16,700 nucleotides of DNA, from assembly GCA_038108555.1 (NCBI GenBank), contig JAYNIA010000053.1, forward strand, positions 1 to 16,700, read 5' to 3'. Numbering within the stretch: position 1 is the first letter of the stretch; every line of letters begins with the position of its first letter. This document shows positions 9,001 through 15,000 of this stretch, one piece after another. Position numbers: made by a program. This DNA is from Nitrospinota bacterium (GTDB lineage Bacteria > Nitrospinota > Nitrospinia > Nitrospinales > VA-1).

Positions 9001-12000
9001 ACAGTCCGTACTAAAAATGGTTCCTGAGTCCCGAAAATATTGCAATAAAAAACTACTATAAATAAGGGAGCCACATGGGGGTTTTGGCGCAGTAGGCCTC
9101 GTATTCTTCGCCAAACTGATCTTTTAAAGCTTTTTCTTCAAAATGGATTCGGTACTGGAAACCAAAAAACGCCAAAAAGGTTCCGATGCCTCCGGCAACC
9201 CAGGAGTGGGTGGTAACCGCATAGGCAAGCACAACCAGCATCATGGCTGTATAGGTAGGATGCCGCATCATTCCGTGCAACTGATCGGTTTTGAGGGTTT
9301 GGCGTTCCCGAAAGGCGATATTAAATTTAAAACGCAGGACACCCAATTGGGCAATTGATATTACTCTCATTGCAGACCCCAGGGAAAAGAGCAACACAAT
9401 CACACATAATTCTATGGTCCCCACCGGGATCACAGTGCTCCTTGAGTAAAATGACATTCCGATTAGGGCAGCGACAATAGGCAAAACATGACCCAATAAT
9501 TGCTGCAAATAACCTTTATTGATTCTTATATCCTCCGGCCTTTCGGTAAGGGTAAAAAATACGACTTCGATGATCCCAAAAATGAGATTGGAAAAAGAAA
9601 CGATTAAAACCCGGTCAAGGGAGGTGCCTTCAAATCCCCATGGGACCAGAGGCAATAAATAAGTCAAACCAACAAGAATGATATTCAAATTGAAATTTTT
9701 AAAGAGGCAAATTAAAAAAAGAGCAAGGAGTAAGCCAAAGTTAATCTGGAGAACGGAAATCGCGGTCATTAATCCCTCTTACAGCCATTAAAATACAAAC
9801 AATTAGTCCTATATTCCCTGCCCTGCAAAAATGGAGAATATTTTTCTGGAAAAAGGTATTCTACTGTTTTTCATAGCATTTTTATTATAAAATAAGAAAA
9901 ACTGTATACCCCTTTTACATTTCGAATCTTGAAATGTCTAAATCGGCAATATAAATAAACTTAATCGGGAACAGAGGCATATTGAATTCGGGGTCATCCC
10001 TTCCAAGATCAAGCTTTATTCCCAAGTAGTTATAGAAAAGAATTGAGGAAAGTAATGGATGCAAAAACACTAAATATTCCAGAAGAGGTCAAGCGTGAAA
10101 TCGAAACCTTCGCCGCAGAAGTCGAACGTTTGAACCGGGGCGAAGTAAACGATGATGATTTTAAAAGGTTCCGCCTGCAACAGGGGATCTATGGTCAAAG
10201 GCAGGATGGTGAACAAATGGTTCGAACCAAACTGCCTGCCGGGAAAATTACCAGTGAACAAATGCGGTGTTTGGCTGACTTTGCCGAAAAATACTCGCAC
10301 GGAATTTTGCACATCACGACCCGTCAAGATATCCAATTACATTACGTCAAGATTAACGATGTGCCACAAGGCCTTGAGGATCTTGCCCAGGCGGGGATCA
10401 CAACCCGTGAAGCTTGTGGGAATACGGTTAGAAACGTTACTGCCTGCCATAAAGCTGGAACCTGTGCCACAGAAGTGTTTGATGTAACACCTTATGCCCT
10501 TGCCGTTTCAAAATATCTTTTAAGGAAAGATTTAACCCAGAATCTTCCCAGGAAATTCAAGATCAGTTTTGGAGGGTGCAATGGTTGTGGATTGGCCCCC
10601 ATTCACGACATTGGGCTGAAAGCAGTAATAAAAAATGAAAACGGGAAAGAAGTTCGAGGTTTCCGCGCCCTCATAGGTGGCGGACTGGGCTCCTTCCCAC
10701 ATTCGGCTTTACCATTAACCGATTTCATCCCTGCAGACCAATTACTGCGTATGTGTGAAGCCCTTGTAGCTGTGTTTGACAAGCACGGAGACAAGAAGAA
10801 TCGAAATAAAGCACGATTCAAGTTTGTTCTGGAAAAACTGGGACTGGAAAAAGTCAAAGAGCTGTACGATGAAGAGTTCGCAGCCTTGGAAGGAAACACC
10901 TTTGCCCCCATCAATACGGATGAAGAAGATAATCCTTCTATTCCCGAATTCAAGCCAGTGGATTGTGGAGATGATCCTGAGTTCCAACTTTGGAAAAACA
11001 GGAATATTGAAGTGCAAAAACAAAGCGAGTTCCACAATGTACAAATCAAACTGATCCTGGGAGATTTCACCATCCCTCAAGCCCGGGCCTTAGCAGATAT
11101 CGCTGAAAATTTTGCAGGCGGAAAAATGGTTGCAACAGTCAATCAGAACTTGATGATTCCCTGGGTTCAGGAACAGGCCTTTGGAAACCTGTATACCGAG
11201 TTGAAGAAAATCGGCCTTCACAAAGCGGGAACGGAAGAAATTCGTGATATCACCTGTTGCCCAGGCTCTGAAACCTGCAACCTCGGTATCACCGCATCAC
11301 GGGGATTGGTAGATAAATTGCATAAGGAAATGGAAAACGGCTTCCAGCCTACAAAGGATCTGGATCATATTTCCATTAAAGCAAGCGGCTGCCCCAACTC
11401 CTGTGGACAACATCATATTGCGTCGATAGGGTTTCATGGTGGAGCAAAAAAATTAAATGGCATCCTGACCCCCCATTACGAAGTCTTGCTGGGAGGTAGG
11501 GTGACAGAAGATAAAGCGATATTTGGGACCTCGGTCATCAAGATACCCGCAAAAAATGCTCCTGAGGCAATGAAAATCTCCATCAACGATTACAAAAGCA
11601 ACAAACAGGGCAATGAAACCTTTGGGGAATATTTTGACCGTATGGGGAAAGGTCATTTCCGGGAGCTGTTAGACCCACTCAAAGACCTCCCGGATATAGA
11701 AAAATCACCTGAATCTTACATTGATTATGGTACGACTGAAAAATTCAGTCTGGAAGATCGAGGTCAAGGGGAATGTGCCGGAGCGGTTACCGATATGATC
11801 ACCGACCGAATCACAGAGGCCGAACGCGCCCATTTTCAGGGCAAGTTATCCCTTGAGAAAAATTCCATCAAAGATGCGGGAGACCATGCCCGTAGAAGCG
11901 TCATTGCCTCGGCTCGTGCATTATTGGTTACAGAAGGTATGGACTTCAATGATGATTGGGAATGTCTTAAAAAGTTCCAGTCTCTCGTAATTGATATGGA

Positions 12001-15000
12001 AATTGTTTCGGCCAAGTTTGCCAAGCTCATTGACAATTTTGAGGAAAATTCTGAAGCCACTGATGAAAAAACTGCAAGTTGGTGGATAACCGAAGCGGGT
12101 GAGCTGGTTGAGGAGTGCAAAGGGGTCCAGGAAAAAATGCAGTCGGACAAATCACTCCGCATACGTGTGGGTGGTGATGACCCCAAAGAAAAAGCAAACG
12201 GGTCGGGAAAAACTTCGGCAAGCATTGACCTGCTGGGAGTTAAGTGTCCCTTCAATTACGTTAAAACAAAAATCAAACTGGAAACAATGGCTTCAGGAAG
12301 CATACTCGAAGTATTGCTGGATGATGGGGAACCATCAGAAAATGTACCCAAAAGTATTAAAAACGATGGGCATAAAGTCATCTCTCTTGTTGAAGAACAG
12401 GGTCATTACAAACTGACCATAGAAAAGGCTTAAGAATTAATGCTCATCAGCATGACCGGGTTTGGCCGGGCGGAATGCCAAAAGGACGACTACACTTATC
12501 AAGCAGAGGTTAGGTCGGTCAACAACCGCTTTATTGAAATAAACACCCGCCTGCCCAAAGCCTATATGGACCTGGAGCAACCTTTAAAGAAACTTATAAA
12601 GACCTACTGCTCCAGAGGTTCAATCAGCCTGACCATCAGCATAGGTAATTCCAACGAAAATACAGGGGAGTGGGAAATAAAGCCCAACCTGCCGCTTGCC
12701 AACCAATATTTAACTGCCTTAAACGAAATTCGTGATTCTCTAAAGCTGGAAGGAGAGATCGATCTAAAGTCAGTTGTAGGAATCCGCGATATCATTAAAA
12801 TAGAACCTTTACCCGTTGATCCGGCAAAGCATGAACTGATTATTAACATAGCCAAAGAAGCCTTATCCTCTCTTCAGAAAATGAGAGAAGAAGAAGGTGA
12901 AAACCTTCAAAAGGACTTGTCAAAAAGAATCGATGCAATAGAAAAACATGCTGCAGACATTGAATCTCGGCACCCGGAAGTCATCAAGGAGTATCAAAAT
13001 CGGCTTAAAGAAAAAATCAAGAACCTCAGCGTAGATCTGGATCCTGATGAATCCCGTCTCGCACAGGAAGCGGCTATTTTGGCCGACCGGTGCGATGTAA
13101 CAGAAGAAATCACCCGGCTGAGAAGTCACTTGGACCAGTTCAGGAATTTTTTCAATACCGACCAACCCATCGGACGCAAACTGGAATTCATTACGCAGGA
13201 AATAAATCGAGAAGTAAATACCACAGGTTCAAAATCAAGCGATATCACTATTTCCAATAAGGTCATTGAAATTAAAAGTGAGCTCGAAAAAATAAGGGAA
13301 CAGGTTCAAAACATTGAATAAGTTGATTTGCAAAAAGGGATTAAACATTTACAGGATTAACGCCAAATGAAAAACGAAGGTCTTCCTATCATCATTTCTG
13401 CTCCCTCGGGAACTGGAAAGACAACCACCTGTAAGATGCTAAAAGAACGCCTGCCAAATCTAAAAATAGCAACTTCGCATACAACAAGAAAAATCCGAAA
13501 TGGTGAGTGTCCGGGAGTCGATTATTTTTTCATTTCGAAAGAAGAATTCGAAACGAAAAAAAACAATAATGATTTTTTGGAATGGGCCCAAGTCCACACC
13601 GAATATTACGGAACGTCATTCGAGATAATAGAAAAACACCAAAAAGAGGGTTTAGACATCTTGTTGGAGCTTGATGTTCAAGGCGTGGATTCCCTCCGTA
13701 ATATGGATTTTAAGGGAATCTACATCCTGATCCTTCCGCCCTCCATCGAAGAAATGACCAAACGACTCAGAAAGAGAGGAACGGAAACAGAAGAAAGCAT
13801 TGAAAGGCGTCTCAAAACAGGTAAGGAAGAAATTAAAAGTTATAAGAAATATGATTTTGTCATCACAAATTTTGAGGTCGAGGAAACCGTAGAATCTATC
13901 GTTTCAATTGTCCGCGCAGAAAAGTCTCGTGTGGACAGGTATATTCCCACCTCAGAAGATATTAAAGAGCTACTGGAATAAATTAAAATGTCGCAAATCG
14001 ACCTCATCGATCTGGTGAGTGACAAAGTTAAAAGCCTTAAAGCCTATCAGGTTGAAACGGTTGCCGAGGGAATAAAACTTCACGCAAATGAAAACCCCTA
14101 CCCGCCCTCTCCCGAATTATCAAAAAAAATTCAGGATCGTTTGGGAAAACTGGACCTCAACCGCTATCCCGATCCAGACAGCAAAACACTGAAAGAGGCC
14201 ATATCACATCGTATTGATGTACCCGAGAACCAAATTGTGATTGGGAATGGGTCGGACGAGCTCATTCAGTGTTTGATGCAGGTTTTTTGTGATGAGGGAG
14301 ATGTTGTCGCTTTCCCGGAACCCACTTTTGCCATGTACGCCATCATGGCAAAAGGAATGGGTTTGAAAATACAGACGTTTCCTTTGAACAACAAATGGGA
14401 TTTTGAAGCAGGCCCGATCATTGAAAAGCTGACCACAAATCAGGCGCGCATCATATTCATAAGCTATCCCAACAACCCAACAGGGAATTGTTTTTCAAGA
14501 AAAGAGATTCAGGAGCTCATCGAAAATTTCAAGGGCATTGTCGTATTGGATGAAGCCTATTTTGATTTTTCAGATCTCACTTTTCTAAATCAAATGCAGG
14601 AACATAACAATCTGGTTATTCTAAGGAGTTTATCCAAGATCGGGCTTGCAGGGCTGCGGGTGGGGTATGGGGTATTCCCCCCCATGCTGGCAAATGAAAT
14701 AAATAAAGTACGCCTCCCCTATAATTCCAACTCGATTTCACAAATTGCAGCAACCGAGTTATTAAATAACTTCTCTCTTGTACAAAAACAAATCGATTCC
14801 ATAAAGGAGGAGCGGGTTCGGGTTACCGAGGAGTTATCAAAAATAGAAAGCATAAAATCCTTTCCCTCAGATGCAAATTTCATTTTGTTTCAGGTATCCG
14901 AAAACGGGGAAAAAGTTTTTAGAAATCTAATGGATAACGGCATTCTTGTCAGATATTTGGGCACTCATCCCATGCTAAAAAATTGCCTCCGTGTTACAAT

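Follow-up and report, generated by a model that had tools for sequence, protein, structure and literature searches.

The protein-thiocarboxylate methionine pathway of Wolinella succinogenes, reportedly worked out by Krishnamoorthy and Begley in 2011, is said to consist of HcyS, HcyF, HcyD, Sir and MetY. The CysO/CysM/MoeZR system of Mycobacterium tuberculosis is another of the closest known systems. A related operon class, 4e, has ThiS/MoaD, JAB, a rhodanese-less E1, SirA, sulfite reductase, sulfate activation and O-acetylhomoserine sulfhydrylase in the passages that define it, and SirA is proposed there to act like a rhodanese and to replace it in such operons (Iyer, Burroughs and Aravind, 2006; PMC1779556). 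In Streptomyces, the MetM/MetO/Mec/MoeZ route is summarized as starting from O-phosphohomoserine (Hasebe et al., 2024, via GapMind, 2026, and PMC12172450). In the DsrAB-DsrC system of dissimilatory sulfite reduction, as outlined in a section of PMC10229431, a cysteine of the carrier protein accepts a sulfur intermediate bound to the sirohaem.

The window analysed here, 16,700 nucleotides of a Nitrospinota contig (assembly G000), carries a gene in which a sirohaem reductase and a TusA domain are fused. The architecture is a widespread but little studied design, and the new element of this analysis is the joint loss of the TusA cysteine and one E1 enzyme. The fused protein is fairly probably an assimilatory sulfite reductase whose tethered TusA would serve as dedicated sulfur donor for a rhodanese-less, MoeB/ThiF-like E1. 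The evidence for the TusA role is all genomic.

Domain organization of the fused gene

The open reading frame spans 10055..12433 on the + strand, as do all features given below, and encodes 792 amino acids from an ATG at 10055, with an alternative TTG start at 10043 (AF2 model, mean pLDDT 91.9). ORF translation and Pfam confirm a single frame with two reductase repeats and a TusA Cys-Pro, as recorded in the genome-wide survey's note. The linker of ∼180 residues described there is in fact a Cys-bearing arm (residues 555-577) followed by a folded HEPN-type domain (577-696); the true linker comprises only residues ∼700-717.

The two-repeat sirohaem-[4Fe-4S] reductase body (residues 46-539; 10190..11671) contains two NIR_SIR_ferr and two NIR_SIR matches in Pfam, the second NIR_SIR repeat lying at 11237-11671, and aligns with 1zj8 at a VIA-align Z of 40.0 (rmsd 2.4 over 479 residues). 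C402, C408, C446 and C450 of the C-terminal repeat (11258..11404) are conserved in 94-95 of 95 rows; from established knowledge of the motif they are taken to be the sirohaem/[4Fe-4S] ligands. The two repeats, the four Cys ligands and the fold place the protein among the sirohaem-[4Fe-4S] assimilatory sulfite/nitrite reductases. Scores against the equivalog models of NCBIfam all fall below cut-off (Sir TIGR02042, 135 against 731.5 bits; CysI TIGR02041, 125/756.6; NF010029, 191/457; NirA NF007125, 232/594, and NF007126, 254/523), so that the fused protein represents a separate subfamily. The N-terminal repeat retains a vestigial cofactor site, C131-x5-C137...C175-x2-C178 (10445..10588), whose four cysteines fall on C402/C408/C446/C450 by self-alignment. 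They are present in 61-62 of 62 Nitrospinales rows, and both pairs are found in 59 of 142 wider sequences; a second Fe-S site at this position is possible.

The arm that follows has the pattern Y-x-D...F-S-L...G-E-C574-A-G (residues 555-577; 11717..11785). C574 is found in 61 of 62 Nitrospinales sequences and, like C731 of the TusA domain, in 95/95 rows of a set that was chosen on the arm/TusA region itself, a choice that bears on both invariance counts. Low model confidence at residues 571-580 (pLDDT 55) is consistent with a mobile loop. The helical domain (residues 577-696; 11783..12142) has a HEPN fold, with Z 15.5 to 2hsb (rmsd 2.6, 118 aligned), 14.1 to 1wol and 13.8 to 1ufb; four named HEPN structures at Z 13.2-15.5 are the best non-reductase rows, chance values for helical bundles reaching 13. 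It clusters in the Atlas with PF05168, a profile with no match on the 792-aa sequence itself in the Pfam search. The HEPN RNase motif R-x4-6-H is not conserved: the pattern occurs anywhere in the segment in 21/95 rows, and the best His column reaches 27/95.

A flexible tether of variable length and sequence (residues 700-717; 12152..12205; pLDDT <50) leads to the TusA/SirA domain (12209..12430), with Cys731-Pro732 (Cys codon 12245-12247). Its Pfam match (PF01206, residues 724-791, E 2e-19, 69.5 bits against a cut-off of 28.6), its fold (Z 12.1-12.8 to 3hz7, 3lvj_C and 8j4c) and the Cys-Pro motif identify a TusA/SirA-like carrier. The E. coli-type TusA equivalog NF001423 is not reached (19 vs 78 bits).

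Substrate of the reductase

The substrate is very probably sulfite, as judged from a K-x-K motif, a separate K-x-N NirA in relatives and sulfate-assimilation neighbours in other phyla, and the identification as an assimilatory sulfite reductase, already put forward in the survey, is well supported. The sulfite-type distal motif K167-F-K169 (10553..10561) is present in 62/62 Nitrospinales sequences, and in the aligned rows of the wide set K167 is kept in 80/81 and K169 in 82/82. Nitrite reductases have K-x-N instead, and tobacco N226 aligns at this site. In E. coli, Lys215 and Lys217 are named as anion-binding (PMC11195156); their correspondence to K167/K169 is by motif alone. The short NIR_SIR paralogues display K-x-N in all 28 sequences read, 26 of which adjoin nirC; a second frame of NirA type, 530-615 aa long, is listed in 39 of 63 relatives, and a short paralogue scores 574 bits against the NF007125 cut-off of 594. 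The fused protein has neither K-x-N nor a linkage to nirC.

That the fused protein is instead an assimilatory nitrite reductase is highly improbable. The top sequence matches are indeed plant nitrite reductases and NirA-family models, those among solved structures being plant nitrite reductases and M. tuberculosis NirA, and the survey's record of nitrite-reductase-like best matches holds; so does its finding of CysD, CysN-APS kinase and APS/PAPS reductase in the genome. Many sulfite reductases are also described as reducing nitrite in a side reaction (section of PMC10229431). Against a nitrite role stand the K-x-K motif, the distinct NirA with K-x-N that relatives carry beside nirC, the location of homologues in sulfate-assimilation operons, and the best structural match, 1zj8, whose paper calls it a sulfite reductase in the title. 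For Nitrospina gracilis, a section of PMC3578206 lists NirA as well as Sir. The fused gene is the sole NIR_SIR open reading frame in G000, which also speaks for nitrite, and to that extent the survey's claim of an only NIR_SIR protein is true of the assembly. Yet nirC is truncated by the end of contig C32, precisely at the nirA position of same-genus genomes, and completeness is 91.85%, so the apparent single copy is probably an assembly gap. Contigs in two of four sequencing runs extend past the C32 end, by 334 and 844 bases; both runs may be the source of the DNA analysed here.

Partner genes and joint loss of the TusA cysteine and E1

No sulfur gene is linked to the fused gene in Nitrospinales, where its neighbours are a methyltransferase-like gene on one side and yicC-gmk-hisC-mltG on the other. 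Contig C24 of G000 carries an operon of cysK, a thrC-like gene, a ubiquitin-like (Ubl) gene whose product ends in Gly-Gly-Ala-Ile, an E1 of 268 aa, a cysM-like gene and a ferredoxin gene. This E1 has no rhodanese domain, and the MoeZ copy on C7 has its own. The genome thus holds the parts scored for protein-thiocarboxylate assimilation of the Iyer class 4e or Wolinella type (a Gly-Gly carrier with C-terminal extension, JAB, rhodanese-less E1, PLP sulfhydrylase, SirA domain and sulfite reductase), split over C53, C24, C45, C27 and C40 and not in a single neighbourhood. The genes expected of a MetM/MetO pathway are also present: the ThrC-like gene stands beside the carrier gene, in addition to a second, more distant ThrC, and there is no MetX. 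MetX was not found in 81/81 genomes of the class, which fits a MetM-type route.

Of 64 Nitrospinales genomes, 47 have the TusA Cys; the domain is missing from 6, another residue stands in place of the Cys in 5, and 6 are not readable at this point. The fusion, which the survey had recorded as kept in all four families, is not retained throughout the order. A short rhodanese-less E1 is found in 46 of the 47 genomes with intact Cys731 vs 0 of the 11 without it; in the single miss, G079 (84% complete), the ThrC-like operon was likewise not found. Nine of the 11 loss genomes keep the operon, all nine without E1 between Ubl and cysM. Three loss genomes still contain a decayed E1 remnant, which matches the 3′ region of E1 in their intact sister G035 at 73-79% identity. 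One loss clade of 85-86% completeness (G070, G073) lacks the entire operon and not E1 alone. JAB is retained in 11/11 and MoeZ in 10/11 loss genomes, which marks the E1 loss as specific. The losses fall in four separate clades with three different lesions. In 5 of the 11 E1-less genomes the whole TusA domain is present, with the Cys changed to Gly, Ser or Tyr together with a few neighbouring residues. The independent contrasts, three on well-supported branches and four on all, point in the same direction; with only 3-4 independent events the co-loss is not statistically significant (sign test, p 0.25). Cys574 is retained in all 11 genomes with TusA loss and is thus not tied to TusA alone.

The architecture extends well beyond Nitrospinales, to ∼20 phyla and to W. 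succinogenes among others, and is already listed in databases, as the survey suspected, for example under the NCBI name 'sulfurtransferase TusA family protein'. Outside Nitrospinales the fused gene usually stands beside ThiS/MoaD-like, E1, JAB and cys/met genes. Neighbours at 80 distant loci include E1 (46), JAB (39), ThiS (30, plus 4 MoaD-like), CysD/H (37), CysK-like (35), MetY/Z (32), CysG/HemC (25), CysN (24) and MnmA (10), and carrier, E1 or JAB is linked to the fused gene in 47. At five loci the fused gene adjoins the same ThrC-like/E1 block as found on C24. Most E1 frames at these loci (39/47) are 255-290 aa long; a short E1 lies elsewhere in 25 of the 34 distant genomes without an adjacent one, a count that stands without a control set. 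JAB is fused to the reductase in P0346 and L038. In Campylobacterales, an E1 of at least 68% identity is found in 30/32 genomes with the reductase vs 0/20 controls without it. The two exceptions have a 577-aa reductase ending in G-E-E instead of G-E-C, at a locus without HEPN, TusA and carrier genes.

Proposed sulfur route and relation to known systems

Loss of the carrier together with one partner enzyme in related genomes suggests that its sulfur goes to homocysteine and cysteine made by a protein-bound route. The survey's view of TusA as a functioning sulfur carrier is supported indirectly, by the invariant Cys and by the co-loss with one E1. CysD/CysN-CysC and CysH, whose genes are present, would activate sulfate and convert it to sulfite, which would then be reduced at the sirohaem-[4Fe-4S] body. 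Part of the product may then become a persulfide on Cys731, probably by way of Cys574 on the mobile arm, and the C24 E1 would adenylate the JAB-trimmed ubiquitin-like carrier. The TusA persulfide, standing in for the rhodanese that this E1 lacks, could yield the carrier thiocarboxylate; the two are genetically coupled. From gene order and published analogues, two enzymes would draw on the thiocarboxylate, a homocysteine synthase of MetM-like type and a cysteine synthase of CysM-like type. The reductase probably still lets some sulfide go free for CysK, and after TusA loss the rhodanese-bearing MoeZ might substitute. A bolder version, put forward tentatively and rated well below even odds, is a covalent DsrC-like relay: the Cys574 arm would remove partly reduced sulfur from the sirohaem as a persulfide and pass it through Cys731 to the E1-activated carrier, so that sulfate sulfur would reach homocysteine and cysteine bypassing free sulfide, and the second four-Cys site would hold an extra Fe-S cluster that may re-reduce the resulting disulfide. 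If true, ∼20 bacterial phyla, the dominant nitrite oxidisers of the ocean among them, would assimilate sulfur chiefly by this design.

It is unlikely, but a serious contender, that the enzyme follows the ordinary six-electron route to free HS- and that TusA merely docks E1-Ubl near the sulfide exit, a non-covalent channelling in which the Cys is structural or incidental. Such docking accounts equally well for the E1 co-loss and the operon linkage, CysK partners need free sulfide, and in the Wolinella study carrier loading was reportedly explained by free bisulfide from Sir. The Cys replacement in otherwise whole TusA domains of the five E1-less genomes speaks against it and is expected if E1 needs the thiol, as does the second invariant Cys (574) on the mobile arm, replaced in truncated forms without carrier genes. 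Solved assimilatory reductases, for their part, are described as releasing HS- (section of PMC10229431). The chance appears slim that TusA and Cys574 are loaded from elsewhere, by a cysteine desulfurase, thiosulfate, or free sulfide on a Cys574-Cys731 disulfide, with TusA feeding E1 or regulating the reductase and the fusion serving co-expression or sensing. Stand-alone TusA does occur within the E1 operon of L226 and L227, two genomes of a different order for which no fused frame of this kind is listed, and alongside the fusion at 6/80 loci, where DsrE often accompanies it; the TusA fold matches the IscS partner 3lvj and the thiosulfate-handling 8j4c, and G000 has a desulfurase candidate. The fusion across ∼20 phyla, with K-x-K intact and sulfate-activation genes adjacent, argues for sulfite-derived sulfur.

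The survey had gone further, proposing that the fused TusA delivers persulfide sulfur to cysteine, Fe-S, thiamine and molybdopterin synthesis alike, as a general hub, and that no sulfide is set free. TusA is probably not such a hub for Fe-S, thiamine and molybdopterin, and the proposal as a whole is very doubtful. Several pathways are described as served by TusA proteins (section of PMC10839748), MnmA lies at 10 of the 80 loci, and G000 has three ThiS-family proteins. The coupling nevertheless points to one route, through the rhodanese-less E1 and the ubiquitin-like carrier to homocysteine/cysteine: in the 11 relatives that manage without the TusA Cys, the short E1 has gone as well, and MoeZ and JAB persist. 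G000 has its own desulfurase candidate adjoining cysE, a moaC-moaD-moaE-like cluster (from ORF translations) and a rhodanese-bearing MoeZ, and the annotated recurrent neighbour clusters contain no Fe-S assembly, thiG or moaE families. CysK uses free sulfide. That none is released is probably too strong a claim, given CysK in the partner operon and CysK-like genes at 35/80 distant loci.

W. succinogenes DSM 1740 encodes a 764-aa protein with two NIR_SIR repeats and TusA (CAE10106.1 / WP_011138900.1), which is probably the Sir of Krishnamoorthy and Begley; the TusA domain and the Cys574 equivalent were reportedly not tested in that study. The cluster representative of this protein is 33% identical to the 792-aa protein over residues 7-791, with K-x-K, G-E-C and Cys-Pro present, and relatives at 60-65% identity in the Wolinella comparison have the locus order ThiS(GGG-A)-E1-JAB-reductase-cysG-metY. 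In Nitrospinales, by contrast, the reductase gene lacks such linkage, a MoaD/SAMP-like protein is the carrier, and ThrC-like and CysM-like enzymes take the place of MetY as sulfhydrylases. The class 4e passages count SirA among the members of the operon and name a fusion to sulfite reductase for ThiS alone; they mention neither the SirA fusion nor the HEPN domain, the arm Cys or the co-loss (PMC1779556).

The reductase resembles M. tuberculosis NirA/SirA (1zj8) and the plant ferredoxin-dependent SiR/NiR in fold (Z 40.0, 39.2 and 36.2) and cofactor ligands. K-x-K is shared with 1zj8, whose E-A-C-G cysteine aligns with Cys121, whereas the 1zj8 and tobacco alignments show none of the four first-repeat Cys and the structural match stops at model residues 517-541, leaving arm, HEPN and TusA unmatched. 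The likeness to DsrAB-DsrC is an analogy in mode of action, no homology of arm or TusA to DsrC having been found; unlike that system, the fused protein is a monomer-type two-repeat enzyme with a biosynthetic destination. As in the Streptomyces MetM route, a ThrC-like PLP enzyme stands by a Gly-Gly carrier with C-terminal extension, JAB and E1. MoeZ-type E1s carry a rhodanese, whereas the E1 of the C24 operon has none and co-varies with the TusA domain of the reductase.

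Domain architecture and substrate

The gene at 10055-12433 of the window (forward strand) is a single open frame of 792 amino acids, in which Pfam recognises two NIR_SIR_ferr domains, two NIR_SIR domains and a TusA domain at residues 724-791. None of the NCBIfam equivalogs Sir, CysI and NirA reaches its cut-off for this protein, and Pfam and NCBIfam give no match within the segment that the genome-wide survey's note had described as a linker of about 180 residues. An AlphaFold model, built on an alignment of 95 rows, has a mean pLDDT of 91.9 and is confident except at residues 1-6, 571-580 and 700-717, where confidence is low; this full model was used in place of a single-sequence fold of residues 540-720, which was poor (pLDDT 50.9). 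In a structure search the reductase body matches the Mycobacterium tuberculosis NirA/SirA structure 1zj8 (Z 40.0), residues 577-696 form a HEPN fold (Z 15.5 to 2hsb, then 1wol, 1ufb and 3o10) and residues 719-792 are TusA (Z 12-13). Because the search splits off the HEPN fold, the supposed linker consists of a folded domain and, in front of it, an arm that carries the motif G-E-C574-A-G. We read the HEPN domain as a scaffold or dimerisation unit; a nuclease role was rejected, as no conserved nuclease motif is present.

Cys574, Cys731, Pro732 and Asn734 are invariant across the 95 aligned rows, a set selected on this region, and K169, on which the set was not selected, is found in all 82 rows that cover its site. 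The N-terminal repeat contains four cysteines (window 10445-10588) with a spacing (x5, x37, x2) like that of the cofactor ligands (x5, x37, x3). They are invariant in Nitrospinales, both pairs occur in 59 of 142 wider sequences, and they may hold a second Fe-S cluster. A Cys-Tyr bond has been reported for M. tuberculosis NirA. Tyr46 (window 10190-10192) and Cys121 (10415-10417) are both invariant in Nitrospinales and presumably pair with the residues of that bond; Cys121 is aligned with the E-A-C-G cysteine of the M. tuberculosis enzyme, and position 121 is Gly in most distant relatives (55 of 78).

The protein very probably reduces sulfite and not nitrite. Its motif is K167-F-K169, and at the same site the alignments show K-W-N for tobacco nitrite reductase, K-W-K for its N226K mutant and K-Y-K for 1zj8; the M. 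tuberculosis enzyme is named a sulfite reductase in the title of its paper. A second NIR_SIR frame of 530-615 amino acids is listed in 39 of 63 Nitrospinales relatives. All 28 of these frames that were read have K-x-N, and 26 adjoin nirC. In N. gracilis, Luecker et al. (PMC3578206) describe both a Sir and a NirA that lies beside nirC; for Nitrospinia the two enzymes are described by Kop et al. The K-x-K motif and the separate K-x-N NirA of relatives support well the earlier proposal of an assimilatory sulfite reductase, and we take the window gene to be Sir. For nitrite reduction would speak the note's claim that this is the only NIR_SIR protein of the genome, and a search of the assembly for NIR_SIR frames indeed found no NirA. 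However, nirC (G000:C32:30067-30750, locus L268) is cut by a contig end, with nirA expected next, upstream. That end falls where nirA lies in the relatives G058, G063 and G065, and contigs from two of four runs of one study extend beyond it. Since nirC is cut at the site of nirA, the apparent uniqueness is probably an assembly gap, nirA itself being probably unassembled.

Partner genes and co-loss with a short E1

The reductase gene sits among housekeeping genes in this genome. On another contig (C24:15505-20276; locus L133, 6503-11256) lies an operon of cysK, a ThrC-like gene, a MoaD/SAMP-like carrier ending in Gly-Gly-Ala-Ile, a short E1 of 268 amino acids without rhodanese domain, a CysM-like gene and a 2Fe-2S ferredoxin. 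Other partners are a JAB protease on C45, MoeZ, rhodanese domain included (C7), and another, more distantly related ThrC (C11). The ThrC-like gene occurs in 76 of 81 genomes of the class and MetX in none of the 81, a control being detected in 7 of 14. By analogy the ThrC-like gene is probably a MetM-type homocysteine synthase, likely to be misread as threonine synthase. Rfam searches of the window and eight related loci, partner operon included, detected no riboswitch or other family.

Several other arrangements were seen. A stand-alone TusA-like ORF (L002 1477-1725, on C6) was rejected as carrier, its motif being without Cys; many relatives have weak TusA matches of about that length, and we take the ORF upstream to resemble a type III pantothenate kinase. 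A second cluster in G079 (C12:7560-10028, locus L239) has a CysM-like gene, JAB and a 494-amino-acid frame with carrier and E1 matches, a possible carrier-E1 fusion. In the window, a ZnuB-type ABC-3 permease is fused in frame to a cation-efflux domain (4178-5623) behind znuA and a gene for an ABC ATPase. Further on, at 8605-9769, are a gene for an ICMT/PEMT-like membrane methyltransferase and a 131-amino-acid protein of no Pfam family; these two adjoin the reductase in 15 and 13, respectively, of 20 class loci examined, and yicC-gmk-hisC comes after it in 15 of the 20.

The reductase was read in 62 of 64 Nitrospinales genomes, none of the long type being listed for G057 and G077. Of the 64, 47 have an intact Cys731. 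The TusA domain is missing in G041, G043, G053, G067, G069 and G072, and in place of Cys731 there is Gly in G010, Ser in G013 and G029 and Tyr in G070 and G073; G050, G055, G064 and G068, cut or masked there, were left out of the count together with G057 and G077. Of the 47 genomes with Cys731, 46 have a short E1 (at least 77% identity); of the 11 without it, none has. The sole miss is G079, a genome of 84% completeness in which the search for the ThrC-like operon was negative as well. In nine of the 11 genomes E1 alone is missing from the operon, at its place between carrier and cysM; a decayed 3′ remnant remains in G010, G013 and G029, with 73-79% identity to the E1 region in their sister G035, which retains both Cys731 and E1. 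Searches of G070 and G073 (genus g19; 85-86% complete) found no ThrC-like, carrier, short E1 or CysM/CysK-like gene. JAB is kept in all 11 Cys731-less genomes and MoeZ in 10.

On the reductase tree (quick IQ-TREE; FastTree was also used) the losses fall into four clades. Three independent contrasts lie on well-supported branches and all are concordant (sign test p 0.25); a Fisher p of 5e-11, which takes no account of kinship, is given no weight. The co-loss of Cys731 and the short E1 is suggestive, not significant. Outside checks agree with the coupling. Two genomes of another order of the class (G008 and G012), with no such fused frame listed, have a free TusA inside the E1 operon. Among 401 Campylobacterales genomes 32 have the reductase, and an E1 (at least 68% identity) is present in 30 of these versus 0 of 20 reductase-less genomes; 2 of the 30 run into contig ends. 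In the two exceptions the reductase stops at G-E-E rather than G-E-C, as does a second copy in G185, and these loci are without HEPN, TusA and carrier genes. Shortened reductases of 577-598 amino acids (L260 7389-9119, L261 306-2036, L262 6813-8606), ending in G-E-E-N or G-E-E-L, are natural forms without the arm cysteine, HEPN and TusA.

A possible sulfur relay and its destinations

Beyond the observed architecture, motif, partner genes and co-variation, a route for sulfur can be proposed. Sulfite would be reduced at the sirohaem and Cys731 would become a persulfide, probably through Cys574. The Cys731 persulfide would then attack the carrier adenylate on E1 as a rhodanese persulfide does, a chemistry established for MoeZ-type enzymes, and the carrier thiocarboxylate would feed the MetM-like and CysM-like synthases. 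To our knowledge, only dissimilatory sulfite reductase has been described as passing sulfur to a protein.

Cys574 might intercept a sirohaem-bound intermediate, like DsrC, or it might capture released sulfide. DsrC takes such an intermediate from DsrAB, and assimilatory sulfite reductases are described as releasers of free sulfide, according to the same source (PMC10229431). The note had excluded free sulfide; the presence of cysK in the partner operon implies that some is made. A covalent relay in the window protein appears to us possible but rather doubtful. All 11 genomes without an intact TusA still have Cys574, which may therefore have further acceptors, for example the MoeZ rhodanese; the idea that Cys574 is co-lost with TusA in Nitrospinales was disproved by the alignment. 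Delivery to Fe-S, thiamine and molybdopterin synthesis, as first suggested, found no support: in this genome cysE adjoins a cysteine desulfurase candidate, and a moaC-moaD-moaE-like cluster and MoeZ are also present. Two additional conserved cysteines and a tethered carrier mark this widespread subfamily as a possible exception to the free-sulfide rule.

Distribution and comparison with known systems

Residues 540-792, searched against 50%-identity representatives, gave 1242 matches, and among the best 150 of these 68 are 735-902 amino acids long. A GTDB scan gave at least 534 relatives, and the 80 kept are titled from about 20 phyla. JAB-reductase-HEPN-TusA fusions with JAB at the N-terminus were seen in two cases (the related protein P0346; L038 6105-8897). 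Atlas look-alike clusters without TusA (HEPN, partly NIR_SIR) are commonest in Bacteroidota, Myxococcota and Acidobacteriota, and are leads only. Many relatives bear the NCBI name 'sulfurtransferase TusA family protein'. The Wolinella succinogenes protein CAE10106.1 (764 amino acids), of identical Pfam architecture, is also named a TusA family sulfurtransferase; the species was not among the 401 Campylobacterales genomes drawn, where the best identity is 65%. The findings also correct the annotation of such proteins, which often carry the TusA name or score best as NirA.

The 80 distant loci span 1.9-16.9 kb each, many being cut by contig ends. Recurrent neighbours are E1 (46 loci), JAB (39), CysD/H (37), CysK-like (35), MetY/Z (32), ThiS (30, plus 4 MoaD-like), CysG/HemC (25) and CysN (24). 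Carrier, E1 and JAB occur together in 29 of the 80. Of 47 E1 ORFs, 39 have 255-290 amino acids and are thus too short for a rhodanese domain. L051, L059, L064, L069 and L084 have a ThrC-like/E1 block, mostly with carrier, next to the fused gene. For 34 distant genomes without an adjoining E1, a short E1 is found elsewhere in 25, a count with no control set. A small DUF2061 membrane protein lies beside the reductase or cysH in 17 of the 80 loci (L049, L057, L068, L088 and others), and Rrf2 regulators (11), MnmA (10), DsrE-like proteins (7) and stand-alone TusA (6) are also found.

The architecture is real, widespread, visible in databases and part of a predicted and partly characterised pathway. 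Neither the architecture nor the operon type is new, and the Wolinella enzyme is probably known too; added here are the partner identified by co-loss, the arm cysteine and the corrected NirA question. The distant neighbourhoods match the Wolinella route to homocysteine by a protein thiocarboxylate, which is reportedly the subject of a 2011 study by Krishnamoorthy and Begley. C24 pairs a ThrC-like gene with a carrier, a gene order that resembles the MetM/MetO route, in which a ThrC-like enzyme with adjoining carrier leads to homocysteine (GapMind 2026; PMC12172450). Neither the reductase-HEPN-TusA fusion nor the co-loss was found in searches of the open-access literature; subscription papers, or the figures and additional files of Iyer et al. 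(2006), may show the fusion. The gene neighbourhoods of the distant fused reductases belong to class 4e of Iyer et al. (2006; PMC1779556), whose text describes operons with E1 always without rhodanese and SirA always present. SirA is predicted there to act like rhodanese, and the sulfur might end on a ThiS/MoaD-like protein. The co-loss names the rhodanese-less E1 as partner, and sisters with a Cys-to-Gly or Cys-to-Ser TusA and a decayed E1 are natural controls, so that the 2006 prediction, SirA in the place of rhodanese, becomes directly testable.
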